Shown here piece after piece: positions 2,411-60,536 of a DNA stretch of 64,000 nt (its first letter is position 1; the number at the start of each line of letters is the position of its first letter). Made by a program: the position numbers and the translations under genes. A model generated the notes under the pieces. That model did no database searches. It saw only the letters and a program-made list of their open reading frames with translations, and was not told the DNA's origin. Origin of the DNA: an uncultured Gammaproteobacteria bacterium (GTDB lineage: Bacteria; Patescibacteriota; Patescibacteriia; Magasanikbacterales; UBA922); NCBI GenBank assembly GCA_964597575.1, contig CAZQXB010000001.1, positions 594,511 to 658,510 on the forward strand, given 5' to 3'.

Positions 2411-2438
2411 TTGACAGGCTTTTCCAGTGTGCTATAGT
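2411..2438 (+). promoter_or_regulatory. Sigma70-like promoter for clpB (TTGACA-16-TATAGT)
   Basis: TTGACA at 2411-2416 and TATAGT at 2433-2438, read directly from the sequence. Confidence 0.5.
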
Positions 2439-2439
2439 A

Positions 2440-2466
2440 TTATCACTCTAATAACGAGAGTGATAA
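2440..2466 (+). promoter_or_regulatory. CIRCE-like inverted repeat (TTATCACTC-N9-GAGTGATAA), putative HrcA-type heat-shock operator
   Basis: Perfect 9-bp arms separated by 9 nt, located immediately downstream of the clpB -10. The CIRCE consensus is TTAGCACTC-N9-GAGTGCTAA, so there is one symmetric mismatch per arm. Confidence 0.5.
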
Positions 2467-2504
2467 CTTTCCCCTGCTCCTATAATGATTCATTATCTAT
2501 CCGT

Positions 2505-14883: not shown

Positions 14884-14967
14884 AGACAAAAAAAGATAAT
14901 GCCCCTATGACAAAGGGTACCAAATTAAAGAACTATTCGCAATTTTTTATCCTCTTTGTCGCCTTCT

Positions 14968-36638: not shown

Positions 36639-37970
36639 ATGGAAACATACCATATGACCCAAGAGGAAGCGCTCGACATTTTAAAGATGGGCCACAATGT
36701 TTTTCTCACGGGGCCGGCCGGAAGTGGCAAGACCTATGTTTTGAATTCTTACATTAAGTATCTAAAAAAACACAAGGTCCCGGTGGCAGTTACCGCTTCA
36801 ACCGGAATTGCCGCAGCCCATATGGATGGCACAACAATTCATTCCTGGACAGGCATTGGCCTTAAGGATTCCCTCACTCGTAAACAACTTACTGAACTAT
36901 CCAAAAACAAAGAACTGGTTGCGCGCATTGAAGGTGCTCGAGTTCTTATCATCGATGAAATCTCTATGCTTGATTCCAAGCGTTTTGAAGCCATTCAGAT
37001 GGTTTGCCAAAGCATACGAAAAAGCGCCCGGCCATTTGGTGGAATACAACTCGTTTTATGTGGAGATTTTTTTCAGCTTCCGCCAGTCGCTAAAAGAGAT
37101 GCTCCAGCCCCCCAGTTTTGCTTCACCTCCTATGCTTGGCGCGAAGCCAATATTGTCACCTGCTACCTCGAAAAACAATACCGCCAACACGACACACGCT
37201 TTCTCGACACGCTAAACGCTATCCGAAACAATGCGGTTACCCCAGAAATTCGAGCCACTTTGCTTGAGCGTCAAGGAAAACCCATCGAAGGAGTAGTAAA
37301 GCCAACGAAACTCTATACCCACAACCAGCGCGTAGACGAAGTGAATGCATTTGAGTTGAATCAAATTGAGGGGGAAACTTCAATTTACCGCATGAAATAC
37401 GATGGCGGATATACGGAAATTGATGAGCTTAAAAAATCGTGCCTTGCACCAGAAGAATTGGTAATCAAAAAAGGAGCGTTTGTCATGTTCACTAAAAATA
37501 ATTACGAAGCCGGGTACGTTAACGGCACTCTTGGAACGGTCGTCGCGATTGAAATCGATACCAACCATCCTGTTGTTCAAAAACTGGATGGCACAACGGT
37601 TGTAGCGAAACCCAGCGATTGGGTTATGGAAGACGATAGCGGAGAAGTGCTTGCCACCATTACTCAAATCCCCCTCAGGCTTGCCTGGGCCATGACCATT
37701 CATAAAAGCCAAGGGATGAGTTTGGATGCAGCCGAAATTGACCTCGGAAGTGCGTTTACCGAAGGAATGGGGTATGTAGCGCTGTCACGCGTTCGATCAC
37801 TTTCTGGAATTAAATTGCTTGGTTTAAATACCATGGCGCTTCGGGTAAACCCACTCGTTCATGAAGTAGATACCGAATTACGTATACTCTCGCTTGAGAG
37901 AGAAAAAGAATTACAAAAACTCCCCAAACGAGAAAAACAAGATCTCCACAAAAAATTTCTAAAAAAATAA
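36639..37970 (+). CDS. PIF1-family ATP-dependent DNA helicase
   Basis: GPAGSGKTYVL (motif I), VAVTASTGIAA, LIIDEISML (motif II) and GGIQLVLCGDFFQLPPV, the PIF1/RecD-like signature, plus a C-terminal SH3-like region. Confidence 0.75.
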   Translation: METYHMTQEEALDILKMGHNVFLTGPAGSGKTYVLNSYIKYLKKHKVPVAVTASTGIAAAHMDGTTIHSWTGIGLKDSLTRKQLTELSKNKELVARIEGARVLIIDEISMLDSKRFEAIQMVCQSIRKSARPFGGIQLVLCGDFFQLPPVAKRDAPAPQFCFTSYAWREANIVTCYLEKQYRQHDTRFLDTLNAIRNNAVTPEIRATLLERQGKPIEGVVKPTKLYTHNQRVDEVNAFELNQIEGETSIYRMKYDGGYTEIDELKKSCLAPEELVIKKGAFVMFTKNNYEAGYVNGTLGTVVAIEIDTNHPVVQKLDGTTVVAKPSDWVMEDDSGEVLATITQIPLRLAWAMTIHKSQGMSLDAAEIDLGSAFTEGMGYVALSRVRSLSGIKLLGLNTMALRVNPLVHEVDTELRILSLEREKELQKLPKREKQDLHKKFLKK

Positions 37971-37996
37971 ATCCGGCAAATCGCCGGATTTATTTT
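37969..37996. terminator. Bidirectional rho-independent terminator (aaatccggc-aaatc-gccggattt)
   Basis: A perfect 9-bp stem flanked by A- and T-tracts, between the convergent helicase and META genes. Confidence 0.7.
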
Positions 37997-38010
37997 AACG
38001 AAATAAGAAT

Positions 38011-38610
38011 CTATTGACCAAGAACACGGGTAAATGTCATCGTTCCTGCACCACCCTTGAGGTTTAATGTAAGCGTATTTCCAGATGCAGATACCGTATA
38101 CCCAATCACATCAGTTAAATACCCAGAATAAATAGTTTCTTGAGAATCTTTGCAATACATAAGGGTTGATGTTAACGGACCGATGCTCATGTATCCAGCA
38201 TTTGCGGTGTATTTTCCAGAAACGCTATTGCAGTCAGTGTGACTTACCATGCGTTCTCGCGTTTCAAAACTGAGCACAAAACGTTCAGGATTTTTTGGAG
38301 TAAACGTTCCTGTTTTAAGGGTTGTTTTCTGCCACTTCCAGGTTGTTCCGAATAAAGCTCCATTCATCGGTTCCGGAGTTGGCGCAGGAACTGGTGCTTT
38401 CGGAGTAGGCGCTGGCGGCTTAACTGCTCGAGCAGGTGGTTTTACCGCCGTTCCCGGAGCTACCACAGTAGTTGTTGGAGCTGCGCTTGGCTGAGGATCC
38501 ACTCCCTGTTTCTTTTCCTTATCTGGTTTCATCATGAATGCCACCCCGAGCGAAATAATAACGACCCCTGCCACGACAACAAGAAAAATAAATGGCGCCT
38601 TCTTTGTCAT
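38011..38610 (-). CDS. Membrane-anchored META-domain (DUF306/HslJ-like) protein
   Basis: TM anchor (FIFLVVVAGVVIISLGVAF), a PA-rich linker and a C-terminal META-like domain (CNSVSGKYTANAGYMSIGPLTSTLMYC). A GTG at 38682 overlaps the upstream stop, so the start is uncertain. Confidence 0.65.
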   Translation of the reverse strand: MTKKAPFIFLVVVAGVVIISLGVAFMMKPDKEKKQGVDPQPSAAPTTTVVAPGTAVKPPARAVKPPAPTPKAPVPAPTPEPMNGALFGTTWKWQKTTLKTGTFTPKNPERFVLSFETRERMVSHTDCNSVSGKYTANAGYMSIGPLTSTLMYCKDSQETIYSGYLTDVIGYTVSASGNTLTLNLKGGAGTMTFTRVLGQ

Positions 38611-38678
38611 ACTTATGAAGAATAAGAAATATTGTATAGTATAGCACACTCTATACAAAATTATCTCTTTTTTTCTCC

Positions 38679-39956
38679 TCACGATAATCCCTGACGTATC
38701 TCTTCTTCCACTAAACGCTTTGGGCGAGCATATGCTAAACGACTTAAACGCCGAAGTGTTGTAATTTGTTCCGCGTCGGCAGTGCCCCGTGCAGGTAAAC
38801 TTACTCCAGAAAACGCTTCACTCATTTTGCCATCAATCATGAGCTTCAAATAAAAATGAAATTTTGGAAGGTTAAGGAAATCTTCTTTCTTTATCGGATA
38901 GAATTCTTTTGCGAGCATCTCTGCATCTTCCACACCGACCCCAAAAGCCATAAATGTGCCTACGTTTCCTAAAATAGAATCTTGCATTCGTTCGGGAAGC
39001 TGTGCAAAGTACTGATTGGTCAAGTGAACCCCAAGCCCGTACTTGCGTGATTCCGAAAGTAAGCTTGAAAAGGTATCAGAAATAAGATTCTGAAACTCGT
39101 CGACATACAAATAAAAAGGGTATCGTTTTTCGACCGGCAACCCCGCTCTTTTTAAAATCGCAGCCTGTAATTTTGAAATGAAAATAAGCCCGAGCATCTG
39201 TGCATTAATGTCCCCAATTTTTCCTTTCGAAAGATCAATCAAAAGAATCTTTTCTCGATCAAGGATGTGGTCAAACTGAAAAGCTGATTTTCTCTGCCCG
39301 ATGATATTTCTCATGAGGCCGTTATTCATGAAGTGGCCAAATTTTGAGGTAAAATAATTAAGCATTTCGGATTTATGAAAATCTGAGGTACTTGCCATCT
39401 GCTTTGTCCAAAAATCAATCACCAGTGGGTCTTTTATGAACTTCCGCTTCGCAAGCTCAAACCGTTTATCAATAAAAAGTTTCGGGATCTCAATAAGGCT
39501 TCCCCCTTCTGGCCCCGCCATCACGGTCAGGGCCGCGCTCCGAAGCCAGTGCTCAAATTGTGGACCAATGATCCCTGTTTTATCCGGATCAAATAATTTA
39601 TAAAAAATTTCAATAACCTGAGCCACGAGAAAATCTTTTTCTGCTTCGTCACGCCACTCAAGCAAATTTAACCCAAAGGAGCATTCCGCATCAGAAGGAT
39701 CAAACAAAATAACATCCTCTAGACGGTTTTTTGGAATACGTTCTAAAAGCCAAGCGATCGACTCACCGTGAGGGTCGATGAAACAGACGCCATGCTGGTT
39801 TTCAATATCCTGCAAGCAAAGATTTTGAAACATGGTGGACTTCCCTGCCCCGGTTTTTCCAAGCATATACATATGCCGCAAACGATCGGCATCTTTATAC
39901 ACGATAGAGGTTTTTTTATTCCGAAACTCATTCGTTCCAAGGAGAACAGTAGGCAT
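38679..39956 (-). CDS. Soluble P-loop NTPase of the TraD/TraG/VirD4 coupling-protein (HerA/FtsK-like) superfamily
   Basis: 425 aa. HMYMLGKTGAGKST (Walker A) is followed by FIDPHGE. ILLIDLSKGKIG, LYVDEFQNL (Walker B-like) and ESRKYGLGVHLTNQYFAQL are also present, with no N-terminal TM segments. Confidence 0.6.
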   Translation of the reverse strand: MPTVLLGTNEFRNKKTSIVYKDADRLRHMYMLGKTGAGKSTMFQNLCLQDIENQHGVCFIDPHGESIAWLLERIPKNRLEDVILFDPSDAECSFGLNLLEWRDEAEKDFLVAQVIEIFYKLFDPDKTGIIGPQFEHWLRSAALTVMAGPEGGSLIEIPKLFIDKRFELAKRKFIKDPLVIDFWTKQMASTSDFHKSEMLNYFTSKFGHFMNNGLMRNIIGQRKSAFQFDHILDREKILLIDLSKGKIGDINAQMLGLIFISKLQAAILKRAGLPVEKRYPFYLYVDEFQNLISDTFSSLLSESRKYGLGVHLTNQYFAQLPERMQDSILGNVGTFMAFGVGVEDAEMLAKEFYPIKKEDFLNLPKFHFYLKLMIDGKMSEAFSGVSLPARGTADAEQITTLRRLSRLAYARPKRLVEEEIRQGLS

Positions 39957-39961
39957 ACAAT

Positions 39962-40246
39962 TTATTCTTCAGTTCCGAAAAACTTTTGCTCAAAATAATA
40001 GGGCGGGAGAACAAACGAATAGTGAGATAGTGTCTCTTGTTTTGCCTCCTCAACCGCAAATAGTTTTTTTAAGGCTTTTCTTTCTTGCTCTAACTTTTCT
40101 TCAATAGTATGAAAAAACTTTGGACTTACCACTCTTTCAATCTTTTTAAGCTCTGCACAACGCGCATGATAAAGAGCTGTAATATCTTCTTCAGAAAGCA
40201 TCGGGGCTTCCGCGCTGCCATGTATAGGGGAATAGAAGTGGGTCAT
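39962..40246 (-). CDS. Hypothetical 94-aa protein
   Basis: It overlaps the upstream AAA+ gene stop by 4 nt (ATGA) and has no family match. Confidence 0.4.
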   Translation of the reverse strand: MTHFYSPIHGSAEAPMLSEEDITALYHARCAELKKIERVVSPKFFHTIEEKLEQERKALKKLFAVEEAKQETLSHYSFVLPPYYFEQKFFGTEE

Positions 40247-41910
40247 ACTTCATCGGCTAAAAGTTTTTCACTAATCAAATTTTCACACGTTGTTTCAATA
40301 AAACGTTTTACCGGTCGGGCACCAAAACGTGGATCAGACAACGTGCGAATCTTCTTTTTTAGAATTTCAGGGTCAATTTTAAAGGAAATTTTGTGTTTTG
40401 CAACCCGTGCCTCTACTTTTTTAATTTCTAACTTCGCCACCTCAAGCAGGTGTTCTTCGGTAAGAGGTTGAAAAACAAGCACAGCATCAAACCGATTTAA
40501 GAATTCTAAACGAAAAAATTGCGCGAGTGCAGGGACCAATTTTTCCTGAAAGAAAGCCTCGCTGTGAATGTCATCTCCTTTTTTAAAGCCATCGATAATA
40601 TCACCCACAGCTAAGTTTGAAGTAGCCATAATAACCGTTTGCGTGAAGTCGATGGTCTCACCCTGACCTGAGGTAAGTCTTCCATCATCTAAAATCTGCA
40701 AAAAGACATCAAAAATTTTGGGATGGGCTTTTTCAATTTCATCGAGAAGCACCAAACTGTACGGCTCCGTTTTTACGGCATTGGTGAGCCCTCCCCCTGC
40801 TTCAAAGCCGACATATCCTGCAGGCGCACCAATAAGACGCGCCACGGTGTGTGCCTCGCCAAATTCGGACATATCAATACGGACAAAACTTTTCTTTCCC
40901 CCGAACAACTCACTTGCCAACACTTTCGCTGTTTCTGTTTTTCCAACCCCAGAAGGACCGAGCACAAGAAAAGACCCGAGGGGGCGGTTTGGATTCTTTA
41001 GCCCAAGCTTCGCTCGCTTCACGGTTGAGGCAATTTGATTCAATGCAACTTTCTGCCCAATAATATGAGAATTAAGCTTATGTTCCAGTTGGCGAAGACG
41101 TTCTTTTTGAGATACTTGGAGTTCAGTTAAAGGAACGCCTACTTTATCAGAAATAACCTGATAGACATCCTCCTCTTTTACCTCCTTCCCTCCTTTTGTT
41201 TTGACGAGCGTTACAGACTCATCGAGAATACTTACCCCTGCCCCTGGCGAGTGACCGAGAACGGCAAACCGTTCAACGAGGCTCAAAATAAGCTCCAAAA
41301 TAGTTTGAGGGATTTGAATATGAGGGAGACCGAAACGCTTTTCCGCCGCCCGAAGAATTTGTATCTGCTCAGCTGCAGGTTGGGGTTTCAATGTCAGAAC
41401 TTCAAAAAAATGAAGAAATTGGGCCTGTTCGTTTTGAAGCCATGCAAATTCTTTCGATTCAAAAGAAAGAATCAACCGTACTTTTCCCAAATCAGCAATT
41501 GGTTTCAAAAGCTGAATCATATGCTGAAGAATGATCGGTTTGTTGTAGACGAGTGCTCCAAAATTATCAATAATAAAAACACAGCTCGGTAGTGAATCAA
41601 GTGCTTCTTTATATTTTTGAAGTGGTACCTGTACGGTACTATTTAAAGGTTCAAACGCCGAAGCTTCACATTCCACCACTCGAAAGGGTTTTGTTTCCTT
41701 TTTTTGAGCATATCGCTCCGCAAAACCACGAAGGAGAGAAGTTTTTCCAATGCCATTTGGCCCGACCACAATACAATTGTTGTGTACTGTACGGTGGACG
41801 ACCCGCTCCATGCGCTCACACTCTTCAGCACGACCAATACACGGCAAAAGACGCCCTTTGAATGCTTCGAGTGTTAAATCGTAATACCCAATTTTTGTAA
41901 ACTCAGGCAT
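40243..41910 (-). CDS. Clp/Hsp100-family AAA+ ATPase paralog lacking the N-domain, with a degenerate D1 Walker B
   Basis: 555 aa. D1 has Walker A VVGPNGIGKTS, but its Walker B is FIIDNFG, where Asn replaces the catalytic Glu. D2 is canonical: LGPSGVGKTE, LVLLDEIEKAH and sensor region SNLAVGD, with a ClpB-like D2 C-terminus. Confidence 0.8.
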   Translation of the reverse strand: MPEFTKIGYYDLTLEAFKGRLLPCIGRAEECERMERVVHRTVHNNCIVVGPNGIGKTSLLRGFAERYAQKKETKPFRVVECEASAFEPLNSTVQVPLQKYKEALDSLPSCVFIIDNFGALVYNKPIILQHMIQLLKPIADLGKVRLILSFESKEFAWLQNEQAQFLHFFEVLTLKPQPAAEQIQILRAAEKRFGLPHIQIPQTILELILSLVERFAVLGHSPGAGVSILDESVTLVKTKGGKEVKEEDVYQVISDKVGVPLTELQVSQKERLRQLEHKLNSHIIGQKVALNQIASTVKRAKLGLKNPNRPLGSFLVLGPSGVGKTETAKVLASELFGGKKSFVRIDMSEFGEAHTVARLIGAPAGYVGFEAGGGLTNAVKTEPYSLVLLDEIEKAHPKIFDVFLQILDDGRLTSGQGETIDFTQTVIMATSNLAVGDIIDGFKKGDDIHSEAFFQEKLVPALAQFFRLEFLNRFDAVLVFQPLTEEHLLEVAKLEIKKVEARVAKHKISFKIDPEILKKKIRTLSDPRFGARPVKRFIETTCENLISEKLLADEV

Positions 41911-41917
41911 AGGAAAA

Positions 41918-44434
41918 CTAAGCAGCTATGGCGATTGGTGTCTGCGGTACAGAGTGTTGAAGAATACTCCTCACATTTCCTTCAATCACCTCTTCCAATT
42001 CACTTGGATTATACCCACGAACGCGACCGAGAAGAGACTCTACTTGACCCCGAGTTCTCGCCGTAATTTCTTTTTTAAATTCTTCGCCAATTTTTTCTTT
42101 CCCTTGTGGCACCATCTCTGGTTTCAAAGTAGCGCCGTCGGTTTGTTTTGCAACATCGCGTACATATGTTCTTTCTTCAAAGCCTTTTTGGTCGGGCGTT
42201 TCTTTTCTCTCTAGCCCAATTTTTTCAGTAGTTTCAAACTTCAACGACACCCCTTCACTTGTGGTTTTTTCAGGAACCGTATGATTCGTGTCTAATTGGT
42301 CTATGTTTTTTTCGGCAACCACAACCTCTTTTACAACAGTTTCTTGTCTTAAAGATACAGAAGGTGAAAACAGCACCGCAGGTTCCGAGGTGGCGGTTCT
42401 TTCCTTATCCGTATTATTCACGATTTCTACTATGCCCACATCTTCCAAAGAAGGCGTTTCAGAAAATTCGACCATCTTTGTAACAGGAATAACTTGAGCT
42501 TTTTCCACAATATCCTTTTCAGTTGCTTCAACTACTTGAGCTACAAACACCTCTTCCATCACGAACACTCCTTCAGAATTATTTTCATAATCCTGAACTT
42601 GGCCAGACTCTTTCTCCACTATTGCTATACCAGATACATCGTCAACAATGGGCAGGTAAGTTTCTTTTCCCACTCCTAGCACCCCAGAAAGAGTAGTGGG
42701 AAGGGAAACAGGAGCCACACTCTCAATATCGGTATCAGTAATTGCCTGCTCCACGAGCCCAATACCAGTTTCCTGCCATACCGCTTGCGCAGTTTCAGCA
42801 AAAGTTTCTTCCTCCGCTACTAAATTTTCTTTTCTCTCAGATACTGTCGTTTCTGTAACAGAAAAAGGGGTAGATTCGATAGAAGCTGAAGAGTTATCTA
42901 CCTCAACCATCGGGAAAACTTCCGTGTCAAAAATAAGTGTTATCGCTTCTGGGGTAGGAGTTGCAGTATTACTTTCTCTCTTAAAATCCGTGACGCGCTC
43001 ATCCCTCTCTACAACTTCCGTATCTCCCTTTTCATGGAAAGAAAAAGTCTCTTCAAAAGAAGTGTCGGCAACCACAATAGACTCTGGGGCAAAATTTTCT
43101 CTTTCGCCCACTGTCATTTTTTTAATATGAAGAGAATTTTCACCTTCTTCAGAACTTGATGCACTTTTTTCTATGTCATCTCTCAGAATAGGGGCCACAT
43201 CTACATAGTGAGAAAAAGAAGACATCTCTGACTCTCCTACCAGACCACGCGAAACATCATATGTTTCTAACTCAATACCAGAAGAGACTTTTATCTCTTT
43301 TGTTTGGAAAGAGGGATCTTCCGGAGTTTGAACTTCTAAAAAAACAGGAACACCTTCTGAAATCTCAAAAGATTGACCTTCCTTTTCAAGGGTAATGCCG
43401 AGCAGCTCCCCCTCTGTTTCATAAACATGCTGAATAACTTCACTGCGTGGGGCATGAACTTGCCGTGCAACATCTCCTAATTCTAGAATCTGAGGAATGA
43501 GTTCATGATTCTCCTCTACAGAAGCCGCCTCGTCTACACCTTCTTGTTCTAATGAAGGGGTGGTAAAAATTTCTTTAGGTAACATTATCGGCGACACCTC
43601 ACCTAAAAAAGGTTGCTCAAATTTTTCAGTTTCAAAAACATGAGATTCTTCAGGCGCAGCAAACATCCGATCAAACCAGGAGTTCTGTTCCTCCGTAGTC
43701 TCTAGATTACCATTCTCGGGTAAGGACAGTTCCACACCCGTGGCGATTACGCCAGATACATCATGGTGCTCTAAAGATTCCTGCCAGATAGGGGTTAAGT
43801 TAAGTTCAATGCCCTGCGTACTTAAATCAACCACCGTTCCATCACCCTCTTCATCAAGCTCGCCATCATTCGCTACCCTCTCCGCAGACACAGGGACATC
43901 ACGAGTAAATCCATACATTGCAATCTTACCATCAGCAGTCACCCACATTTTTGATATATGCCACACCTCTTTATCACCTTTTTGTTCGACATGCTTTCCA
44001 ATATGCTCTGATCTCGGACCCTCCTGAAGGGCCCCCCGCATTCGTTCGTGGTACGCAATCTCCTCGGCTGTACCGGTCTCATGCACACCCTTGGTAACAT
44101 CGTGCTGTGTTCTTGGTACGAATAAATGCCCGGTAGTTGCATCAAACTCCATTTGTCCCACATTGTCAGAAAATTCTACACTCCACTCAGACATCTCCCC
44201 ACCAAACATCGTTCGAATTTCCTCTAAAGCAGATTCCTGAGTGGGAGGAGTATACTCCTCAGAGACGCTAGCTGGCTCTCGTTCATTCTGCAAAGCCAGC
44301 TCTCCAGAATCAGGGGATGCTGGAGGAAGCTCAACTGAATTTGGCGCGCGAAAAGGACTACCCTCACTAGAATTGGGAAATTGATCTTCTTCAGGCTCTT
44401 TTTCAATTCTCTGTTGTCCGTGGAGTTCTCGCAT
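41918..44434 (-). CDS. 838-aa hyper-acidic, low-complexity (E/D/S/T/V-rich) protein with a short globular N-terminal region
   Basis: Acidic residues dominate throughout. There is no TM or signal peptide. Residues ~90-180 (FDATTGHLFVPRTQHD...WHISKMWVTADGKIAMYGF) look globular. It is first in the operon. Confidence 0.6.
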   Translation of the reverse strand: MRELHGQQRIEKEPEEDQFPNSSEGSPFRAPNSVELPPASPDSGELALQNEREPASVSEEYTPPTQESALEEIRTMFGGEMSEWSVEFSDNVGQMEFDATTGHLFVPRTQHDVTKGVHETGTAEEIAYHERMRGALQEGPRSEHIGKHVEQKGDKEVWHISKMWVTADGKIAMYGFTRDVPVSAERVANDGELDEEGDGTVVDLSTQGIELNLTPIWQESLEHHDVSGVIATGVELSLPENGNLETTEEQNSWFDRMFAAPEESHVFETEKFEQPFLGEVSPIMLPKEIFTTPSLEQEGVDEAASVEENHELIPQILELGDVARQVHAPRSEVIQHVYETEGELLGITLEKEGQSFEISEGVPVFLEVQTPEDPSFQTKEIKVSSGIELETYDVSRGLVGESEMSSFSHYVDVAPILRDDIEKSASSSEEGENSLHIKKMTVGERENFAPESIVVADTSFEETFSFHEKGDTEVVERDERVTDFKRESNTATPTPEAITLIFDTEVFPMVEVDNSSASIESTPFSVTETTVSERKENLVAEEETFAETAQAVWQETGIGLVEQAITDTDIESVAPVSLPTTLSGVLGVGKETYLPIVDDVSGIAIVEKESGQVQDYENNSEGVFVMEEVFVAQVVEATEKDIVEKAQVIPVTKMVEFSETPSLEDVGIVEIVNNTDKERTATSEPAVLFSPSVSLRQETVVKEVVVAEKNIDQLDTNHTVPEKTTSEGVSLKFETTEKIGLERKETPDQKGFEERTYVRDVAKQTDGATLKPEMVPQGKEKIGEEFKKEITARTRGQVESLLGRVRGYNPSELEEVIEGNVRSILQHSVPQTPIAIAA

Positions 44435-44705
44435 AATTAAAAACGCACCTCTCCCGAGGTGGTCAAAAAATATACTGAGATAGATATTTCCTGCTCGGGA
44501 TGTCTACACTATTTGGCGATCTGACTCCTTTAGGCTGCCCTAAAGATTACAGTTGCGGCACAGTACCGGAATTTCACCGGACTTCCCCAAATAGCTGCTC
44601 AATTGTGTGTCCATTGTATCTCGCGCATCGAGCGGTGTCAAACGTCCAAATATCACAAAAAAATATTCACTACTGCGTACACTAAAATGGTTATCCACAC
44701 CGTAT

Positions 44706-44736
44706 TTGACTCTCACGTTACGTCATAGTTTACTAT
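44706..44736 (+). promoter_or_regulatory. MerR-type promoter: TTGACT, 19-bp spacer, TACTAT, with internal dyad CACGT-T-ACGTCA
   Basis: The hexamers are at 44706-44711 and 44731-44736. The 19-bp spacing and in-spacer dyad are the classic architecture of MerR-family autoregulated promoters. Confidence 0.5.
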
Positions 44737-44761
44737 AGATCTTAGGAAGAATCTTCCCTCT

Positions 44762-45511
44762 ATGAGTTATACGGTTAACCAGTTAGCGCAACTCGCACAC
44801 ATTAGCGTGCGGACACTTCATTACTATGATGAAATTGGGCTTCTCGAACCCTCTTCTGTCATGAAAAATGGATACCGCTCCTATGAGGAAAAAGAACTTA
44901 TCCGCCTGCAGCAGATACTCTTTTTTCGCGAGCTCGAGTTTACGCTCGAAGATATTAAGCGCATGCTCAACCGCCCCAATTTTAGTGTGGTCGAGGCGCT
45001 TCGAGACCAAAAAAAACTCATGCAGTTAAAACAGAATCGCCTCACGAACCTCGTGAAGACGATTGATAAAACGATTCGCACTATGACGAAGAATCAAAAA
45101 ATGAATGATGAGGAAATGTACGATGCATTCAAAGATGAAGATGTGAAACAGTATCAGGAAGAAGTGAGAGAGCGTTGGGGAAATACAGAGGCGTACAAAC
45201 AAAGCCAGGCCAAAGTGAGCAAAATGACAAAAAAAGAAATGGACAAGCTAAAAGAAGATGGAAAGAAGTTTACCGAAGAGCTTGCAAAGGCCATGGATAA
45301 GCCAATCGATAGTAAAGAAGTACAGGCGCTTATCCAAAAACACTACGATGGGGTAAACCTTTTTTACACGTGCGATCTTCAGATGTATCGAAACCTTGCT
45401 CAAATGTATGTCGACGATCCACGATTCACGGCCTATTACGATAAATTCCGCCCAGGTCTTGCCGTATTTGTTCGGGATGCGATCTTTCATTACATTGATG
45501 CAAAAAAGTAA
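44762..45511 (+). CDS. MerR-family transcriptional regulator with TipAS/Mta-like C-terminal effector domain
   Basis: N-terminal HTH MSYTVNQLAQLAHISVRTLHYYDEIGLL and a coiled-coil linker. The C-terminal domain resembles the TipAS antibiotic-recognition domain. Confidence 0.85.
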   Translation: MSYTVNQLAQLAHISVRTLHYYDEIGLLEPSSVMKNGYRSYEEKELIRLQQILFFRELEFTLEDIKRMLNRPNFSVVEALRDQKKLMQLKQNRLTNLVKTIDKTIRTMTKNQKMNDEEMYDAFKDEDVKQYQEEVRERWGNTEAYKQSQAKVSKMTKKEMDKLKEDGKKFTEELAKAMDKPIDSKEVQALIQKHYDGVNLFYTCDLQMYRNLAQMYVDDPRFTAYYDKFRPGLAVFVRDAIFHYIDAKK

Positions 45512-50122: not shown

Positions 50123-51094
50123 TTACTCTAAATTTTCAAGGTCTTTTCGAAAAGAAGGAAGTTTTTCTAACTCAAGAATTTTATGAAGAATAATCGCAAC
50201 ACCCTGCTCTGACTGTTCCAGATAGGCGTGCATCCGTTCTGCGCTCTCTTTTTCTTCTGCATCAAAAACCCCTTGTTCACGCATACCCTGTATCTCTTCT
50301 CGCACGCCTTGCATATAAGTTCTCGACTCTTCTTCAACCGCTTTTGCAATTCTCCGAGCATTGGCAATTGCCGCCTTATTAAAGCCTAAACTCTGAATTA
50401 CATTCCGCTCAGCTTCGGCTCCTAACCGAGAAGGTAGACCGTCAACAAATTCTCGCATTGATCCTTCTGATAACCGACCACCCTCGTCTTTGTTTTTCGC
50501 GCCCGTAGGTTCTACCACCGCAAGCTCACCTAAAACTCTTTGCATTTGAGGATCATCTGCATCATAAGCAACCGCAAGGTCTTTCCGAATGGTTGAAAGG
50601 AACTCTGCATCAAGCTCTTGAAGAACTGCGTCTTCCGAACGACCAGATTGGACTTTCAAAAAGAAGACGGTACGGATTCTCGCCACCAACTCTTTCAGAG
50701 ATAGTTCAGCATGTGTTTCTTCGTCAAAATACTCTTCATGGTCTGGGTCGAGTTCTTCTTTTTTCCGGGTATAAAAATCACCGAACTGTTCTTCCAAAAC
50801 AAAAGAGCTATCGTCATCAAAGCCGTAGTGTGCAAATACTGCCTCAAGATTCCTTGTGAGCACTCTGGAGTTTTCATTCGCGATGAACTCACTCGAGCTT
50901 GCATCAAAACTGCCAATATACTCTCGTACCTGAGCTCTCTCATTTTCAGAAAGTTTCCCATTAAAAAATTTCTGAATTCGATCCATGACCTGGTCTTCGA
51001 ATTCTTTATACAACAACTCAACCTGTACTCTTTCTTGCGCCTTTTCCTGCTCTTCAGTTCCAAACCAACCACCTCTCCCAGTCTCTCGTGACAT
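50123..51094 (-). CDS. Hypothetical acidic cytoplasmic protein
   Basis: 323 aa, E/D-rich and helical, with no family match. Confidence 0.45.
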   Translation of the reverse strand: MSRETGRGGWFGTEEQEKAQERVQVELLYKEFEDQVMDRIQKFFNGKLSENERAQVREYIGSFDASSSEFIANENSRVLTRNLEAVFAHYGFDDDSSFVLEEQFGDFYTRKKEELDPDHEEYFDEETHAELSLKELVARIRTVFFLKVQSGRSEDAVLQELDAEFLSTIRKDLAVAYDADDPQMQRVLGELAVVEPTGAKNKDEGGRLSEGSMREFVDGLPSRLGAEAERNVIQSLGFNKAAIANARRIAKAVEEESRTYMQGVREEIQGMREQGVFDAEEKESAERMHAYLEQSEQGVAIILHKILELEKLPSFRKDLENLE

Positions 51095-53469: not shown

Positions 53470-56382
53470 CTAGAATTTCTTCGTGATGATGTCCACCAGT
53501 CTATTCAAGAATTTTGGAAAGTCTTTAAGTACAAATCGACCTTTATAATCTCTCAAAATCAATTCCTGCAAGGTTTGTTTTATATCCTTCACAAACACAT
53601 CCCGCTTTGAGGATTCCTGCCAACCACTATCGAGATCGTCTTCAATACGAATGCGCAACTCTTTTATAAATTCCTTTATCACATCCTCTTTTCCAGCCTC
53701 AACAAACTCTTGAGAAATGACATAGAGCGCGTATTCCTTTAGATCAAGCCCTAGATCCTTCGCCTCGTCTCCTTTCGTCTTGATATCGCTCATCAATTCC
53801 TCATATCGGCGTATTCGTTCGGCAAGGTCAATTTGATTCTGTTCAAACTCACGACGAATAGCGGTTAGCCGTTCGCTAAACTTCTGATACGCCGGATTTT
53901 CATCAAGATTGATAGAGATTTCCTGCTTGAGCATCTTCTCAAGGTTGAGAGCCTTTTCTTCTTCGTCCATTCCCTTGAGGCGTTCAAGCGTGTACAAATC
54001 ATTCACGCGAAGTTCTCTGAAATTCTTGGTGATTCCTTCGTAGTCGATGATATTGCTCTTTTGAATAAGCTCTTTAACTTTCTCCCCATATTCTTCAAGC
54101 AAATAGCGATCATCTTCGCTTCGGAATTCTTTCAAAAATGCCAGGTAAAAACTCGTCACCCATTCAAACGGACGAATATACTGCTTCAGGAATGGATCAG
54201 GCGAAAGAAACTCAAACAAACTCTTGAGCTTCATATACTTCTCAACAAAGTATTTCTGCTTGTCTTGATTATCGATGAAAATCTTGAGACATCGACGAAG
54301 ATTATCCATTGATGGGTCTTCAATATTCACGCCGGTAAATACCTTCATCACATCATTTAAGACATCAGTAAATCGCGCCTTGACTCGCTCAATATCAATC
54401 ATCGCCGAATCAATGACGTCTTCGTCAAAATCTAGAGCATCATAAAGATTCCTCGTAATGCCATAGTAGTCAATAATCTTTCCGGCTTCTTTGTTTTTAT
54501 ATACCCGATTCGTACGCGCAATAGCCTGCAAGAGGTTGTGGTCGCGAAGCGGCTTGTCGAGGTACATCACTTGCTCAATCGGCGCGTCAAAACCAGTGAG
54601 CAACATATCGCACACCAAAAGGAATTTAAGTGATGACTTTGAATCTTTGAATTTCTCAATGATTTGCTCTCGCTCACGTTTGCTCGTGTTGTACACCTTC
54701 AAATCATCCGCATCACTGTTTGGGTCGCCAGGCGAATACACTACCGCCGACCATTCAGCCGGAACCAATTTATCAAGTAGCTTTTTATACGTTGCCACGG
54801 CTTCACGGTCATATGCCACTATTTGCCCCTTAAAGCCGTTTGGCTCCACATAGAGCTTGTAATGCTCCACAATATCCCTTGCCACGGCTTCCATACGCTT
54901 AGGAAGCTTCACGAGCGCTGCTTTCTTACCATACTTCTTCACCAACTCGGTCTTTTGTTTGTCTGACAAATCTCCAGCAATCTCTTCAAACTGTTGATCA
55001 AGCTTTTCTTCATCAATAGAAAACTTTGAAAGACGCGCTTCGTAGGTAACAGGGATAGTCGCCCCGTCATCAATCGCTTGCTGGATAGAGTAGTAGTCCA
55101 AGTATCGCTTCCCATCACCTTCATAATTTCGGAATGTATTGGTATGCGTCTTATCCACCGGCGTTCCAGTGAATCCGAAGAAAAATGCTTTTTTGAACGC
55201 ATTACGCATGTTAATACCCGACACACCCTCGTCCCCTCGATGCGCCTCGTCAGAAAGCACAATCACATTCTCATCAAGATTTTCCACCTTGTCTCCAAGC
55301 TCAGCAAACTTCTGAATGGTCGTAATGAATATGCCTTTCTCCGGTGATTGAATTTTTTCTTCCAAATCTTTGCGCGAAGTGACACGAACAATATTTTTTC
55401 CACCAGCATTGGTAAATGTTTCAAATATTTGATCGTCCAAATCCACGCGGTCAACCAAAATAAATACCTTAGGGTTTTCCAGTTGTTTATTAAACCGTAG
55501 TTTCCATGCCGTGAAATACATCGTGAGCGTCTTGCCTGACCCTTGTGTGTGCCAAATAAGCCCTTGTCGTTTCTCTTTACTTACAACACGCTCAACAATT
55601 TTATTCGTCGCACGCATTTGCTGATAACGAGCAATTTTCTTCACCAATTTCTCCTTCTCTTTTTCAAATAAAATGAAATTTTGCACGATATCCAAAAAAT
55701 TCTCTTTAGAAAGAAGTGAGAAAAGCGACATCTCCAACTCTCCACCAAGCTCTTTTTCCATGTCTTCGTCGCGCCACTGGAGGAAGTATTGCTTTGGCGC
55801 GCCGGTTGCACCGTACACCGTTTTGAGCCCGTCGCTCGCGATATTGAAGCAGTTGGGAATAAACAACTTGCGAGCTACTTTTTCGTATCGCTTTATCTGG
55901 TCAATACCATTTTCAAAACTCACACCCTCCGAAGCCGTCGGGCTTTTGGCCTCAATATCTACAAGCGGAAGCCCGTTTACGAAAATCATAATATCCTGAC
56001 GTATGTTTTCCGTATCCCCCTCAAAATAGAATTGATTAGTAACAACAAATTGATTGTTTTCTGGATTATCGAAATCTACGATTTTATAATCGCGAAATAA
56101 TCCCGTTGCAGAATCTTTGAGGTTTATACCGTTACGAATTGCGTCAAGAAAAATTTGATTTGAGTCAATTTTATTTACTTCACGCAAAATACTTTTGGCG
56201 ACAGTATCATCAACGCTGTTTATTCTTTTAATAGCATCAAGTAATTGTGGTTTGATAGTATACTCACTCTCCAAATCACGGAGTTTGGCAAATTCCTCTG
56301 GTTTTATGTATTCAAAACCAAGCTTATCTTTAATAAACCTGATGATGTAATTTTCTACTGTAACTTGTTCATTGAATTTCAT
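53470..56382 (-). CDS. hsdR: Type I restriction enzyme R subunit
   Basis: ATG at 56382 (MKFNEQV), an N-terminal nuclease region, helicase motifs (QGSGKTLT, VLSDEAHR) and a C-terminal helical domain. The track ORF starts at an upstream TTG. Confidence 0.9.
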   Translation of the reverse strand: MKFNEQVTVENYIIRFIKDKLGFEYIKPEEFAKLRDLESEYTIKPQLLDAIKRINSVDDTVAKSILREVNKIDSNQIFLDAIRNGINLKDSATGLFRDYKIVDFDNPENNQFVVTNQFYFEGDTENIRQDIMIFVNGLPLVDIEAKSPTASEGVSFENGIDQIKRYEKVARKLFIPNCFNIASDGLKTVYGATGAPKQYFLQWRDEDMEKELGGELEMSLFSLLSKENFLDIVQNFILFEKEKEKLVKKIARYQQMRATNKIVERVVSKEKRQGLIWHTQGSGKTLTMYFTAWKLRFNKQLENPKVFILVDRVDLDDQIFETFTNAGGKNIVRVTSRKDLEEKIQSPEKGIFITTIQKFAELGDKVENLDENVIVLSDEAHRGDEGVSGINMRNAFKKAFFFGFTGTPVDKTHTNTFRNYEGDGKRYLDYYSIQQAIDDGATIPVTYEARLSKFSIDEEKLDQQFEEIAGDLSDKQKTELVKKYGKKAALVKLPKRMEAVARDIVEHYKLYVEPNGFKGQIVAYDREAVATYKKLLDKLVPAEWSAVVYSPGDPNSDADDLKVYNTSKREREQIIEKFKDSKSSLKFLLVCDMLLTGFDAPIEQVMYLDKPLRDHNLLQAIARTNRVYKNKEAGKIIDYYGITRNLYDALDFDEDVIDSAMIDIERVKARFTDVLNDVMKVFTGVNIEDPSMDNLRRCLKIFIDNQDKQKYFVEKYMKLKSLFEFLSPDPFLKQYIRPFEWVTSFYLAFLKEFRSEDDRYLLEEYGEKVKELIQKSNIIDYEGITKNFRELRVNDLYTLERLKGMDEEEKALNLEKMLKQEISINLDENPAYQKFSERLTAIRREFEQNQIDLAERIRRYEELMSDIKTKGDEAKDLGLDLKEYALYVISQEFVEAGKEDVIKEFIKELRIRIEDDLDSGWQESSKRDVFVKDIKQTLQELILRDYKGRFVLKDFPKFLNRLVDIITKKF

Positions 56383-56389
56383 AGTATTA

Positions 56390-57571
56390 CTATGGTTTTT
56401 TGTCCAAGTTCGCCACAAACCCTTCTTTTGATAAAATTTCTACAATCCCTCGCAAAAGATAGTTGTTTGCAAAAGCCACTGTATAAATCCTACCGTTTTC
56501 TTTGAGCGGCATGACCATCTTTTTTTCTTTCAACTTCGAGATAATACGAGACCTTTGCACTGATGAATCCTCATTCAACACCTTCTCCAAATCGCCGGCT
56601 TTTACTTGCATATCTTTTTGAGAGATTATAAATGTCAGAATCTTATATTCTCGATCAGTAATCCATTTATTCTCAAGAGAAAAACTAAAAACTGGTAACA
56701 AAATACTATTGATCAAATAATTTTGATCAAGCAATTTATCTATTTTTTCAATTTCAGCCTTTAGACCCGAGAATACATATTCGCACCATGCGATTGTTTT
56801 TTCTTGTTCTCCAGTATCCGCACCGGCAAGCATATCGTAATATTTTTGCCTATCCATACAAAACATTGCTGTTGGGTTCAAAATCGAACCCGTCTTCACC
56901 TGAAACCCCTGCTTAATGAGCATGGCATAGGTTAGTAACCGCACCAAACGGCCATTTCCATTATCAAACGGGTGAATCCAAGCAAAACGATGGTGTGCCA
57001 GTGCCATAACTAAGAGGTCATTCGCTTTTTCAGTCTTTTGATTTACAAAAGAAAGTAGTTCGTCAAAATAATTTGGTACTTGCAGGTATTCAGGTAAGAC
57101 AACCGAAGACCCTGTAATTTCAGGATTTACATTTCGAAGTTCACCGGGCCGCGCTGAACCTTCTCCTTCTGGTGGTGGAGTAAGATCTTTCGTTATGATT
57201 TTATGCACTTCTGATAAAATAGCCCTACTGATCTCGGTATCTTCTTTAATAGTCTTATGCAAAAATTGCAAAGCATTTTCAATATTATCAATTTCTCTAG
57301 AGCTTTCGTCTGTACGGGTTTTTCCTTGAATTTTTTTCTCCACGAATTCCGCCAGTGTTGTACGATTACCTTCTATTCGTGCCGAACCCAAACTTTCTAG
57401 TATATGAAAAATATCTTTCAATTGAAAAAAGATGTACGGTGGCACACCCACGCTAAAAATCCGTTTAGTGCGTAGTTCTTCAAGCTCAAAAATCAAAGTG
57501 GCAAGACGCGAGTTCCACTCTGGTTTTATAAGCTTAAGCGGTATTTCTTTGAATTCTCGTGTATTTTTCAT
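56390..57571 (-). CDS. Fic/DOC-family protein (AMPylase-like) with C-terminal winged-helix
   Basis: Fic motif HPFDNGNGRLVRLL. Confidence 0.85.
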   Translation of the reverse strand: MKNTREFKEIPLKLIKPEWNSRLATLIFELEELRTKRIFSVGVPPYIFFQLKDIFHILESLGSARIEGNRTTLAEFVEKKIQGKTRTDESSREIDNIENALQFLHKTIKEDTEISRAILSEVHKIITKDLTPPPEGEGSARPGELRNVNPEITGSSVVLPEYLQVPNYFDELLSFVNQKTEKANDLLVMALAHHRFAWIHPFDNGNGRLVRLLTYAMLIKQGFQVKTGSILNPTAMFCMDRQKYYDMLAGADTGEQEKTIAWCEYVFSGLKAEIEKIDKLLDQNYLINSILLPVFSFSLENKWITDREYKILTFIISQKDMQVKAGDLEKVLNEDSSVQRSRIISKLKEKKMVMPLKENGRIYTVAFANNYLLRGIVEILSKEGFVANLDKKP

Positions 57572-57708
57572 AAATTGATGATAGCATTATTTACAACATA
57601 CTACAATACTATTTAACATATACACATACAAAAGCCTTATTTTAAGCTATTTTATTACATATACTCTGTAGTATTATTTAACATTTCTCTAATAATGATT
57701 TAACATAT

Positions 57709-59013
57709 TCATGGGATCATTTTCCCAATCGCAGCAAGATGATCAGTTCTCACTTGTCCGCTTAATAAGTCTTGCATCAGGCCTTTTTTGAGGAGAGTAA
57801 ATTTTTCTTTTAATTTTTTATTGACCAAAATCTTTTCATCGACTGCGGAAAGAATTTCCGCAATTTCTTTTTGTTCATCTTCTGTTGGAATCGGGATATA
57901 TACCTGCTCCAAGCTTCCTATAGGCAACTGGGGCTGAGCTGAGCCGGAGACGATTTCTTTATACTTTCGCTTCAACATATCACTCTTCATTAAATGATAT
58001 AGGAAGACTGCCTCGACGCCGTCAAAAGCTCTTAATAAAACCATGCCTGAATTAATTCTTATATTTTCGAAGGTAACATTTTTATCGTAATAAGCAACGT
58101 TTCCTACGGTACCTCTCGTGGTCAACACAACATCTTCCCTTTGAAGCCTTCCCTTTCTTAACGCTTGATCCTTTTCTCTTGATATGAACTGCAATTCGTT
58201 AAATAAAAACTTATCGTCTTTAATGTTCTTATTATTCAGGAACAGACAATAACCCCCACTTGTGAGATAGGGGTCAATAAAATCATGGCCGTGTGGGTAA
58301 TTAACACCGCGATCACCATCAATTATTTCTATAGGTGCATCTTTTAACTTTAAAACCTCCCACTCTTGAGGAATCTGCCCGATTTTTGTTTCTTTAAATT
58401 TTGTATGCCCAATCCCGCGAGTAAAGAGCTGTTGCATCAGTCCGCGTTTGAGTTTTTCTGTCGTCTCAATCACTTCCTGCGTTTTCGCGATATCCTCATC
58501 CACCACACCTAAAATCTCTGCAATCTTTTGCTGTTCTTTGATTGGAGGAATAAGAACTTCAATTTGAGTTTTTATTACAGATGGTCGCACCTCCTTTATG
58601 GTGCTACCAGAGGAAAGTTTGTGCAGAAGATTTTTCTTACTTAGAAGTAAATAATACAAATAAGTATTAAGAAGGTCATCATTTGGTATAATCCCCGCAA
58701 TTCCTTGCTTTGTAGTAACAGGAACATCCGCAATACCAACTTCGCCAATAGTAGCCCCGAACGACAGGATTACGCTTCCAGTCGGCCACAGTTTTGCAGA
58801 TGATTTTTGGAGACCTTCATCCGTAAGTGTGTCCTTTGTTTGTTTAATATGTGGTTTTATATCATTAACCACAACCCAAGGAATCTTGCCGCCAAAATAT
58901 TCATCTTTTGAACGCAAAGGTGTCCCTCCATCACCAATATCAGCGAGAAAATTGCCCAATTCTCCAAATTTCCATCCATTCGGAATATTCTGTTGCGTTT
59001 TAGTGATTGGCAT
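57709..59013 (-). CDS. hsdS: Type I R-M specificity subunit with two target-recognition domains
   Basis: Two TRD-like halves separated and followed by conserved coiled-coil spacers (LKRGLMQQLF / LKKGLMQDLL). The ATG is at 59013. Confidence 0.85.
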   Translation of the reverse strand: MPITKTQQNIPNGWKFGELGNFLADIGDGGTPLRSKDEYFGGKIPWVVVNDIKPHIKQTKDTLTDEGLQKSSAKLWPTGSVILSFGATIGEVGIADVPVTTKQGIAGIIPNDDLLNTYLYYLLLSKKNLLHKLSSGSTIKEVRPSVIKTQIEVLIPPIKEQQKIAEILGVVDEDIAKTQEVIETTEKLKRGLMQQLFTRGIGHTKFKETKIGQIPQEWEVLKLKDAPIEIIDGDRGVNYPHGHDFIDPYLTSGGYCLFLNNKNIKDDKFLFNELQFISREKDQALRKGRLQREDVVLTTRGTVGNVAYYDKNVTFENIRINSGMVLLRAFDGVEAVFLYHLMKSDMLKRKYKEIVSGSAQPQLPIGSLEQVYIPIPTEDEQKEIAEILSAVDEKILVNKKLKEKFTLLKKGLMQDLLSGQVRTDHLAAIGKMIP

Positions 59014-59677: not shown

Positions 59678-59679
59678 AT

Positions 59680-60534: not shown

Positions 60535-60536
60535 AT

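Follow-up and report, generated by a model that had tools for sequence, protein, structure and literature searches.

A cobalamin riboswitch precedes a conserved four-gene cassette encoding a hyper-acidic protein and two ATPases in Patescibacteria

What is the role of a large, strongly acidic protein whose gene heads an operon with the genes of two ATPases? The question is raised by a stretch of 64,000 nucleotides (nt) from an uncultured member of the Patescibacteriota (GenBank assembly GCA_964597575.1, contig CAZQXB010000001.1, positions 594,511 to 658,510; hereafter the window), in which an 838-residue acidic open reading frame (ORF) is followed by genes for a Clp-like and a TraD-like ATPase. 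A preliminary description, made from the letters of the window, had regarded the product as a low-complexity protein that might act as a DNA mimic, a scaffold or a secreted effector. We found that the ORF belongs to a four-gene operon conserved across the Candidate Phyla Radiation (CPR)/Patescibacteria, that this operon lies behind a cobalamin riboswitch, and that the acidic protein is modular, consisting of a conserved N-domain of ~110 residues, a fast-evolving polyanionic linker with GIx[LIM] motifs and a conserved C-terminal tail. The riboswitch, the Ala-Ala (AA) ending of the tail and the motif array had all been overlooked in the preliminary description, and they change what the finding concerns.

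The ORF is a real gene. Its boundaries and length are exactly those originally described and its coding strand is the minus strand, the plus-strand frame across 41918-44434 being riddled with stop codons. The composition is rich in the residues listed at the outset (E 15.9%, V 10.3%, S 8.1%, T 8.0% and D 4.8%), and 173 D/E against 68 K/R residues give a net charge of -105 and an isoelectric point (pI) of 4.36. Among the 46 long ORFs of the window it is the most acidic, with -0.125 net charges per residue versus a median of 0.0 and a median pI of 7.1. Since the highest 19-residue Kyte-Doolittle mean is 1.22, the protein has neither a transmembrane (TM) segment nor a signal-like hydrophobic N-terminus, again in agreement with the preliminary description. 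Its remark that basic stretches are almost absent applies to most of the protein, but not to the final ~140 residues, whose net charge is approximately zero. The term 'low complexity' was too strong: windowed entropy is 3.5-3.9 bits, self-BLAST of the acidic region returned no internal tandem repeats, and recurrence is confined to short motifs, including a specific one in the tail. Scans of the protein against Pfam, NCBIfam, PADLOC and PHROG gave zero matches, and in whole-length searches (word-indexed against 5.8 billion proteins, and exhaustive with phmmer against 1.8 billion representatives) it matched itself only. Its relatives were therefore reached via the neighbouring ATPases.

In the window, the genes follow one another on the minus strand in the order acidic ORF, Clp-like ATPase, 94-residue ORF, TraD-like ATPase and META-domain gene, with gaps of no more than 7 nt or 4-nt overlaps; both order and spacing bear out the initial view that the acidic ORF heads an operon with the two ATPase genes. 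Relatives of the Clp-like protein (~550 residues) are numerous, and all source names that bear an organism refer to CPR/Patescibacteria (Doudna-, Falkow-, Pace- and Wolfebacteria). The four cassette proteins found in the protein collection were singleton clusters from one contig. Three independent contigs share, between unrelated flanks, the order of a 777-847-residue protein without Pfam matches, a Clp-like protein, an ORF of ~80-113 residues and a TrwB-like protein; the large proteins of these contigs are all hyper-acidic (pI 4.1-4.2) and align to the window protein over ~110 N-terminal residues only. Because the TraD-like protein is strongly conserved (73-78% identity among the first four), it was chosen as the search handle for further loci, which yielded 29 genome and 80 metagenome loci, with 283 relatives confirmed in the metagenome scan.

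In 33 of 33 genome loci, the Clp-like gene is located a short distance upstream of its TraD-like companion, and it is present in every metagenome locus long enough to reveal it. Wherever the DNA suffices, an acidic ORF ends 3-94 nt before the start of the Clp-like gene in genome loci, and -4 to 279 nt before it in metagenome loci. This linkage of acidic ORF and ATPase is invariant across 81 loci, which represent 67 non-redundant acidic proteins with a median length of 639 residues (242-1021) and a median pI of 4.45. In all 81, the acidic ORF co-occurs with both the Clp-like and the TraD-like gene, and every locus with enough upstream DNA holds an intact positional counterpart; neither a lack of conservation in relatives nor a broken frame, which the preliminary description had named as signs against the gene, was encountered. 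Given the invariant linkage to both ATPase genes, a scaffold or substrate of the ATPases is the natural reading of the acidic protein.

All-versus-all clustering of the flanking ORFs (32 loci, ~8 kb) recovered four conserved genes only, with the next cluster reaching 6 of the 32 loci. Those flanking genes that recur are housekeeping genes (Mur ligase, EPSP-synthase-like, PurT, 6PGD), and the flanks vary among loci. As only four genes are conserved amid these varying housekeeping flanks, we regard the cassette as a self-contained chromosomal unit and not as an island. An anti-phage defence island was considered and rejected, as PADLOC gave generic AAA/HerA P-loop matches only and the flanks are of the housekeeping kind.

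The leader of the acidic ORF matches Rfam family RF01689 at 44506-44605 (minus strand), with 42.0 bits against a gathering score of 36.5. Our own covariance model (R1), built from the window and two further loci (L001 and L003), scores 114 bits in the window. Over 1.2 Mb and both strands, R1 found one site per locus in 68 of 97 sources, always on the plus strand just upstream of the acidic ORF and nowhere else. Of the non-redundant loci, 58 have 250 nt or more of upstream DNA. R1 matches 49 of these at E<=1e-3 and 52 at E<=1; Rfam adds L028 and L029, which brings the riboswitch to 54 of the 58, and the remaining four loci (L071, L109, L111, L113) retain the exact 11-mer CCCGAGCAGGA at the expected place. 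Rfam gathering scores (RF00174, RF01482 or RF01689) are reached in 12 loci, namely the window, L003, L007, L012, L015, L018, L019, L021, L028, L029, L030 and L035. Across 27 aptamer sequences, in an alignment fitted to the model, which favours the pairing figures, 85.2% of cells are paired versus 67.5% in shuffled sequences and 35-52% with slid partners, and changes on both sides of a pair number 93 versus 35. By its gathering-score matches and compensatory changes, the leader element is classed as a cobalamin riboswitch (Rfam clan CL00101), with a corrinoid as the predicted ligand. The promoter-like site in front of it is, by consensus match only, the best-scoring in 37800-44900.

Downstream of the aptamer, the exact 11-mer CCCGAGCAGGA occurs in 58 of 117 loci, nearly always as a single copy on the plus strand directly after the aptamer, and once in the window. 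Among genomes whose proteins share 45-65% of their residues, such strict identity is uncommon for an expression platform; it hints at a tertiary contact (e.g. a kissing loop) or a protein-binding site. Of the related leaders subjected to folding, the majority (L001, L007, L016, L057 and L105 among them) form a CUCGGGA hairpin with a U-run, and when the expression platform is folded in isolation the long alternative helix between UCCCGAG and CUCGGGA is the minimum-free-energy fold. As UCCCGAG complements the CUCGGGA of the terminator, the conserved element may serve as an antiterminator, an anti-sequestor or a regulatory hairpin. The predicted polarity is that of a ligand-OFF switch acting on termination and/or translation, and with such a polarity the operon would be made only under cobalamin scarcity. 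In the window, a gene for a MerR/TipAS-type regulator (44762-45511, plus strand) is transcribed away from the region of the riboswitch promoter, with ~120 nt between it and the promoter-like site; in other loci it is no conserved neighbour of the cassette.

Within the acidic protein, the N-domain holds both peptides quoted in the preliminary description, FDATTGHLFVPRTQHD (aa 97-112) and WHISKMWVTADGKIAMYGF (aa 158-176). Its homology to the positional counterparts is supported by BLAST E-values of 1e-8 to 8e-16, and an iterated hidden Markov model of the domain found its matches exclusively among the upstream ORFs (21 of 31); the conservation initially suspected at the N-terminus is thereby established, and is specific to these ORFs. 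An alignment of 26 sequences (A5) takes in a second subfamily. Single-sequence AlphaFold2 (AF2) predicts the order helix, three strands, two helices, three strands, with a predicted local distance difference test (pLDDT) of 68, and a helix of the domain carries a near-conserved His (A-x-H-x-x-M-L-x-x-W). A profile of the 26 N-domains added just two further proteins, both from the second subfamily, and hence no deep alignment was available for structure prediction. The alignment that included these two was visibly misaligned and was discarded. Compared with PDB sequences and Pfam, the N-domain profile gave nothing credible.

Outside the N-domain, BLAST detected no similarity of the acidic region to relatives, and the region is not alignable between genera. 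This polyanionic part is probably disordered: single-sequence AF2 of aa 184-776 shows no secondary structure (pLDDT 23-43, in a low-confidence model with a pLDDT of 32), and the region falls marginally on the disordered side of the charge-hydropathy boundary. The long disordered tail first proposed is in line with these two predictions, both of them weak. An unbiased scan of all gapped tripeptides ranked GIxL first (40 observed versus 1.8 expected, z ~30), with GIxI and GIxM ranking next and GI as the top dipeptide; in loci not inspected beforehand, GIxL was observed 30 times versus 1.5 expected. The extended motif is [FLI]-[ER]-x-[SLT]-G-I-[STE]-[LI]-x-[ED]. The nine G[IV]x[LIVMF] sites of the window protein exceed both the average (2.1) and the highest count (7) among its shuffled versions, and in 36 of the 67 proteins the last GIx[LM] copy lies within the final 11 residues. 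The resemblance of GIxL-E to the pilin site G|FTLIE raised the possibility of processing by a prepilin peptidase, which was set aside as none of the motifs is followed by a hydrophobic helix and the protein has a soluble, acidic character.

The C-terminus is AA in 40 of the 67 non-redundant counterparts and A in 52 of them, while an AA ending is found in 10 of 363 background ORFs (Fisher p 5e-29). The tail consensus is L-N-G-I-T-[LM]-[KRE]-[RIL]-A-A; tails in the clade of the window end in ..FELAA, ..LELAA and ..IAIAA, and the window protein itself in ..PIAIAA. The hydrophobic-Ala-Ala tail (..ELAA, ..RRAA, ..AIAA), which sits free at the C-terminus of a probably unstructured chain encoded beside a Clp/Hsp100-family unfoldase, recalls the ssrA degron recognized by ClpX and ClpA. 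The ssrA tag, however, is added by transfer-messenger RNA (tmRNA), whereas this tail is gene-encoded on one dedicated protein, and the adjacent ATPase is ClpB-like, with a dead first AAA+ module and no clear ClpP-docking loop. Because the tail is part of the gene at every locus, we describe it as resembling the ssrA degron and not as a member of that class. Scans of the window and of 50 loci detected no tmRNA, and hence no native ssrA tag was at hand for comparison.

The best PDB match of the Clp-like ATPase is ClpB (1qvr, 3.4e-103), mostly via the second AAA+ module (D2). The protein starts at approximately residue 158 of ClpB and its alignment jumps from ClpB residue 394 to 519, such that both the N-domain and the M-domain are missing; it scores far below the NCBIfam equivalog cut-offs (407 versus 1232 bits for ClpB). 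In 117 relatives, the first module (D1) keeps its Walker A, has a Walker B of the form hhhD[D/N/G/S]F without the catalytic Glu, and lacks the KYR pore loop, while D2 is highly conserved with GYVG and DEIEKAH. These motifs mark D2 as an intact motor and D1 as degenerate. The window also encodes a canonical full-length ClpB/ClpC of 905 residues (2427-5144, plus strand; Clp_N, AAA, AAA_lid_9, AAA_2 and ClpB_D2-small), for which reason we take the short Clp-like protein to be a specialised paralogue. It shares two AAA+ modules and a ClpB-type D2 with D2-small with the ClpB/Hsp104 disaggregases, but not their N-domain, the coiled-coil M-domain that couples them to DnaK, the catalytic D1 Glu or the pore-loop Tyr. 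A parallel in organization is ClpV/TssH of type VI secretion, likewise a ClpB paralogue that is co-encoded with, and presumably dedicated to, one client in a genome with a canonical ClpB/ClpC. ClpV nevertheless keeps a client-binding N-domain and an active D1, both of which the cassette ATPase lacks, and there are no type VI secretion genes here.

The TraD-like protein resembles type IV coupling proteins (T4CPs), and exceeds the Pfam cut-offs of two such models. The NCBIfam SXT_TraD and CD1115 VirD4-like models match it far below their cut-offs, its PDB matches are at the P-loop level only (TrwB at E 0.1-0.2), and CedD, FtsK and HerA match weakly. An N-terminal TM region is absent: the Walker A begins at residue ~33, and the N-terminus (MPTVLLGTNEFRNKK..) is non-hydrophobic in 4 of 4 aligned members. 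Identity across the sampled CPR lineages is 63-83%. Among annotated proteins, its nearest relatives reach ~30% identity; these are the products of solitary genes labelled 'T4SS DNA-binding domain', most of which lie on non-mobilisable plasmids, and the gene context of the best plasmid relatives (Sulfitobacter, Rhodococcus) was uninformative. Within ~8 kb in 32 loci, no VirB4, mating-pair or relaxase gene is a conserved neighbour. The small protein encoded between the ATPase genes forms a BLAST cluster spanning 24 of 32 loci; it has no family match in Pfam or NCBIfam and appears helical by eye only. Separately, the T4CP-like ATPase matches PHROG 5156 over its full length (E 1.8e-48, function unknown; model positions 388-804 of 824) and is 27% identical to gp156 of Bacillus phage G.

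Taken together, these features may be accommodated by a reading to which we give somewhat less than an even chance, namely that the acidic protein is a dedicated client or adaptor of the two co-encoded ATPases, produced solely under B12 scarcity. Binding of B12 would let the terminator or Shine-Dalgarno-sequestering hairpin form; without B12, the conserved UCCCGAG would pair with CUCGGGA and open the hairpin. The free C-terminal hydrophobic-A-A tail would then be an engagement signal, like LAA for ClpX and ClpA, and the D2 motor of the Clp-like ring would thread the unstructured polyanion, with the repeated GIxL motifs as multivalent docking or grip sites for one hexamer and the folded N-domain as cargo or stop. 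The T4CP-like ring and the small protein would take part in this pathway too, where they would either receive the threaded chain or recruit it. Its output might be B12 scavenging, a B12-independent bypass or a programme for the absence of the host. A bolder version, which we regard as rather doubtful, is that of a hitherto unrecognised, lineage-wide CPR protein-threading machine that the riboswitch turns on at B12 scarcity, in which the ssrA-like tail of the motif-bearing polyanion is engaged by the dead-D1 ClpB ring and the chain is then passed to an exapted soluble T4CP-like ring. For these cofactor-dependent epibionts, B12 would in that case be a read-out of host supply, and the machine part of a host-seeking or starvation response.

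Several considerations weigh against the client or adaptor reading. Firstly, threading and docking are deduced wholly from gene order and motif resemblance, and the disorder of the chain rests on the single-sequence AF2 model (pLDDT 32) and the marginal charge-hydropathy result. Secondly, the signals are uneven: 27 of the 67 tails have no AA end, and PIAIAA in the window lacks the GI part of the motif. Thirdly, ClpB-type rings usually admit substrate at the D1 face, and D1 is here without its pore-loop tyrosine; the ClpP-docking tripeptide is ambiguous as well (xGF where ClpC has VGF), which leaves degradation and mere unfolding both possible. Moreover, nothing among the components of the cassette explains the B12 control. 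Lastly, a T4CP homologue, possibly an orthologue of the cassette ATPase, is reported to be non-essential in Ca. Southlakia epibionticum (PMC12102498).

Four other explanations have to be weighed. An unlikely one is that the acidic protein is an exported or translocated substrate. The T4CP-like ATPase would be the coupling protein for a Patescibacteria type IV secretion system (T4SS) encoded elsewhere, the Clp-like ring would unfold the protein, and the C-terminal tail would be the secretion signal; the polyanion would reach the cell surface or enter the host, with B12 as a cue for host contact or nutrient supply. A secreted effector, as the preliminary description suggested, is in this sense a possible role. 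Substrates of the T4SS and of the type VII secretion system (T7SS) carry C-terminal recognition signals and have to be unfolded, and some T4SS effectors use Glu-rich C-terminal signals. The very fast evolution of the acidic region beside highly conserved ATPases is, in addition, a pattern common in host-facing proteins. With T4CPs such as TrwB, TraD and VirD4, the cassette ATPase shares an FtsK/HerA-type nucleotide-binding domain and scores above the gathering thresholds of T4CP Pfam models. It departs from them in lacking the N-terminal TM anchor, in having no virB4 or relaxase nearby and in its much higher conservation, the 63-83% identity across deep CPR lineages being far above expectation for conjugative T4CPs. 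Nor is there a membrane or VirB component among the conserved neighbours in 32 loci, or a signal peptide on the acidic protein, and the cassette sits in housekeeping contexts. EccC (FtsK-like) and EccA (AAA+) of the T7SS likewise combine an FtsK/HerA-superfamily ATPase and an AAA+ ATPase with a substrate-like protein bearing a conserved C-terminal tail. EccC, however, is membrane-anchored with three ATPase domains and T7SS substrates are small WXG100 helical hairpins, whereas the cassette ATPase is soluble and single-domain, the candidate substrate is a polyanion of 240-1020 residues, and the similarity to EccA is at the P-loop level only. Export gains some support from a survey of Patescibacteria in which orphan T4CP homologues run to thousands: 5,713 VirD4-like homologues were counted in 2,918 genomes, 148 of them near virB4, with possible exaptation raised and the role left open (PMC12102498).

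The near-universal presence of the riboswitch at these loci invites another explanation, as genes behind cobalamin riboswitches nearly always serve B12 uptake or biosynthesis or encode B12-independent isozymes. The cassette might thus be a module of B12 economy that acquires, extracts or traffics corrinoids, for instance through corrinoid binding by the N-domain and stripping of the cofactor from captured proteins by the unfoldase; alternatively, it might offer a B12-independent bypass, in which, for example, the FtsK/HerA-like motor would import DNA or deoxynucleotides once a ribonucleotide reductase dependent on B12 had stalled. We judge this to be quite improbable. The near-conserved His of the N-domain helix would suit the former and membership of the T4CP-like ATPase in the DNA-translocase superfamily the latter, but the His is not invariant and the cassette has no transporter, known B12-binding domain or nucleotide-metabolism gene. 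Like the cassette, classical cobalamin regulons (btuB/btuFCD, metE, nrdDG/nrdEF, cob/cbi) carry in the 5' leader an Rfam-recognised B12 aptamer together with a terminator or Shine-Dalgarno-sequestering platform. What sets the cassette apart is its gene content, namely two ring ATPases and two proteins whose family is unknown, with no transporter, biosynthetic enzyme or isozyme among them. As an observation in its own right, adjoining DUF4430 and DUF6580 genes lie ~3 kb downstream of the cassette in one locus (L003, 16233-17212). DUF4430 may resemble a transcobalamin-like B12-binding domain, and the two genes may form a B12-uptake pair.

It is very improbable that the polyanion is passive, that is, a stress shield resembling late embryogenesis abundant (LEA) or 'Hero' proteins, or a cation buffer for starvation, co-induced with a ClpB-like disaggregase and subject to no threading or specific recognition. 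Extreme net charge, a likely disordered tail, a co-encoded ClpB-family ATPase and the presumed induction under B12 limitation are what such a role would predict, yet it has no need of a conserved N-domain, a position-specific AA tail or recurrent GIxL motifs, and it leaves the strictly linked and conserved T4CP-like ATPase and small protein unexplained.

Hardly credible, finally, is a nucleic-acid mimic that occupies DNA-binding proteins (restriction enzymes, for example, or the T4CP/FtsK-like ring at its DNA channel) and thereby blocks or regulates them, the anti-restriction form of which figured in the preliminary description and finds no backing here: the charge of about -0.125 per residue, a partner in the DNA-translocase superfamily and a Type I restriction-modification (R-M) system 9 kb away in the window would suit it, but the protein shares with Ocr and ArdA only its strongly negative charge and has no similarity to these or any other family (Pfam, NCBIfam, PADLOC, PHROGs), the R-M system is not a conserved neighbour, plasmids and phages show only distant solitary T4CP-like relatives, and whereas known DNA mimics are small, compact, rigid folded proteins of phages and plasmids, this one is large, probably mostly unstructured, chromosomal and vertically conserved among varying housekeeping flanks.

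No account of the cassette or of its link to a riboswitch was found among families, defence systems, solved structures and the literature (open-access papers and bioRxiv). The ATPase folds and the riboswitch class are known, but the acidic family, the composition of the cassette and its B12 control are not. Patescibacteria account for much of bacterial diversity, and the majority of the genes conserved in them are without a functional assignment. The cassette provides a family of orphan T4CP-like ATPases with fixed partners and a regulatory input, and their role thereby becomes a testable question. A threading machine, if true, would assign a function to thousands of orphan T4CP homologues in Patescibacteria and would extend the targets of B12 riboswitches from transport and metabolism to an ATP-driven protein machine. 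The natural pairing of a gene-encoded degron-like tail and multivalent motifs on a probably disordered polyanion with a ClpB derivative whose first ring is dead would also be relevant to AAA+ mechanism. If B12 signals host supply, the switch would give obligate epibionts a simple sensory logic.

Table 1. Features of the cassette and its leader, in window coordinates (aa, amino acids of the acidic protein)
Feature	Position	Strand	Details
Sigma-70-type promoter-like site	44613-44641	-	TTGACA-17 nt-TACAAT, 11/12 consensus matches; ends ~5 nt before the riboswitch
Cobalamin riboswitch aptamer, AdoCbl-II (adenosylcobalamin) type	44503-44608	-	5' leader, between promoter-like site and ATG
Conserved UCCCGAGCAGGAA element	44488-44500	-	just 3' of aptamer; UCCCGAG complementary to CUCGGGA of terminator
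Terminator-like hairpin	44440-44461	-	CACCUC-GGGA-GAGGUG and U-run; 3' arm holds Shine-Dalgarno GAGG of acidic ORF
Acidic ORF	41918-44434	-	838 aa; ATG at 44434, preceded by GGGAGAGG
Acidic protein, aa 1-68	44231-44434	-	acidic N-terminal leader segment, unconserved
Acidic protein, aa 69-183	43886-44230	-	conserved alpha+beta N-domain (fold predicted)
Acidic protein, aa 184-776	42107-43885	-	polyanionic, non-alignable, predicted disordered
G[IV]x[LIVMF] motifs (nine)			aa 208, 233, 346, 361, 386, 557, 602, 622, 728
Acidic protein, aa 777-827	41954-42106	-	charge-balanced (~0); two predicted helices (pLDDT ~45-57, low confidence)
Acidic protein, aa 828-838 and stop codon	41918-41953	-	C-terminal tail ..HSVPQTPIAIAA, hydrophobic-A-A end
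Clp-like ATPase	40243-41910	-	short ClpB-family double-AAA+ ATPase, 555 aa; Pfam AAA_2 189 bits, ClpB_D2-small 54.5 bits
Small protein	39962-40246	-	94 aa, between ATPase genes; conserved C-terminal YF-x-QK motif
TraD-like ATPase	38679-39956	-	soluble T4CP/TraD/HerA-like P-loop ATPase, 425 aa; Pfam TrwB_AAD_bind 32.9 bits (cut-off 20.5), TraG-D_C 31.2 bits (cut-off 22)
META-domain protein	38011-38682	-	223 aa; 4-nt overlap with TraD-like stop in this genome only; outside conserved cassette

Some further features of the window may be recorded. The second most acidic ORF (50123-51094, minus strand) encodes 323 residues with a net charge of -28 and a pI of 4.67, and has no Pfam match. A PIF1-family helicase gene lies just past the cassette (36639-37970, plus strand), and another is found ~2 kb upstream of the cassette in L003 (4108-5664); the association is not conserved more widely. 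The Type I R-M cluster (53470-62222, minus strand) comprises HsdR (982 residues), a Fic-domain protein (393 residues), HsdS (437 residues) and two ORFs without Pfam matches; its 561-residue ORF at 60537-62222 is probably HsdM, and the embedding of a Fic gene in an R-M operon is unusual. A protein of 1141 residues (11464-14889, minus strand), with a bacterial Ig (Big_7) domain as its sole Pfam match, is possibly a large protein of the cell surface. GC skew is negative over most of the window (1-64000) and nearly all long ORFs lie on the minus strand, a pattern consistent with one replichore in a genome of small size (~0.9 Mb).

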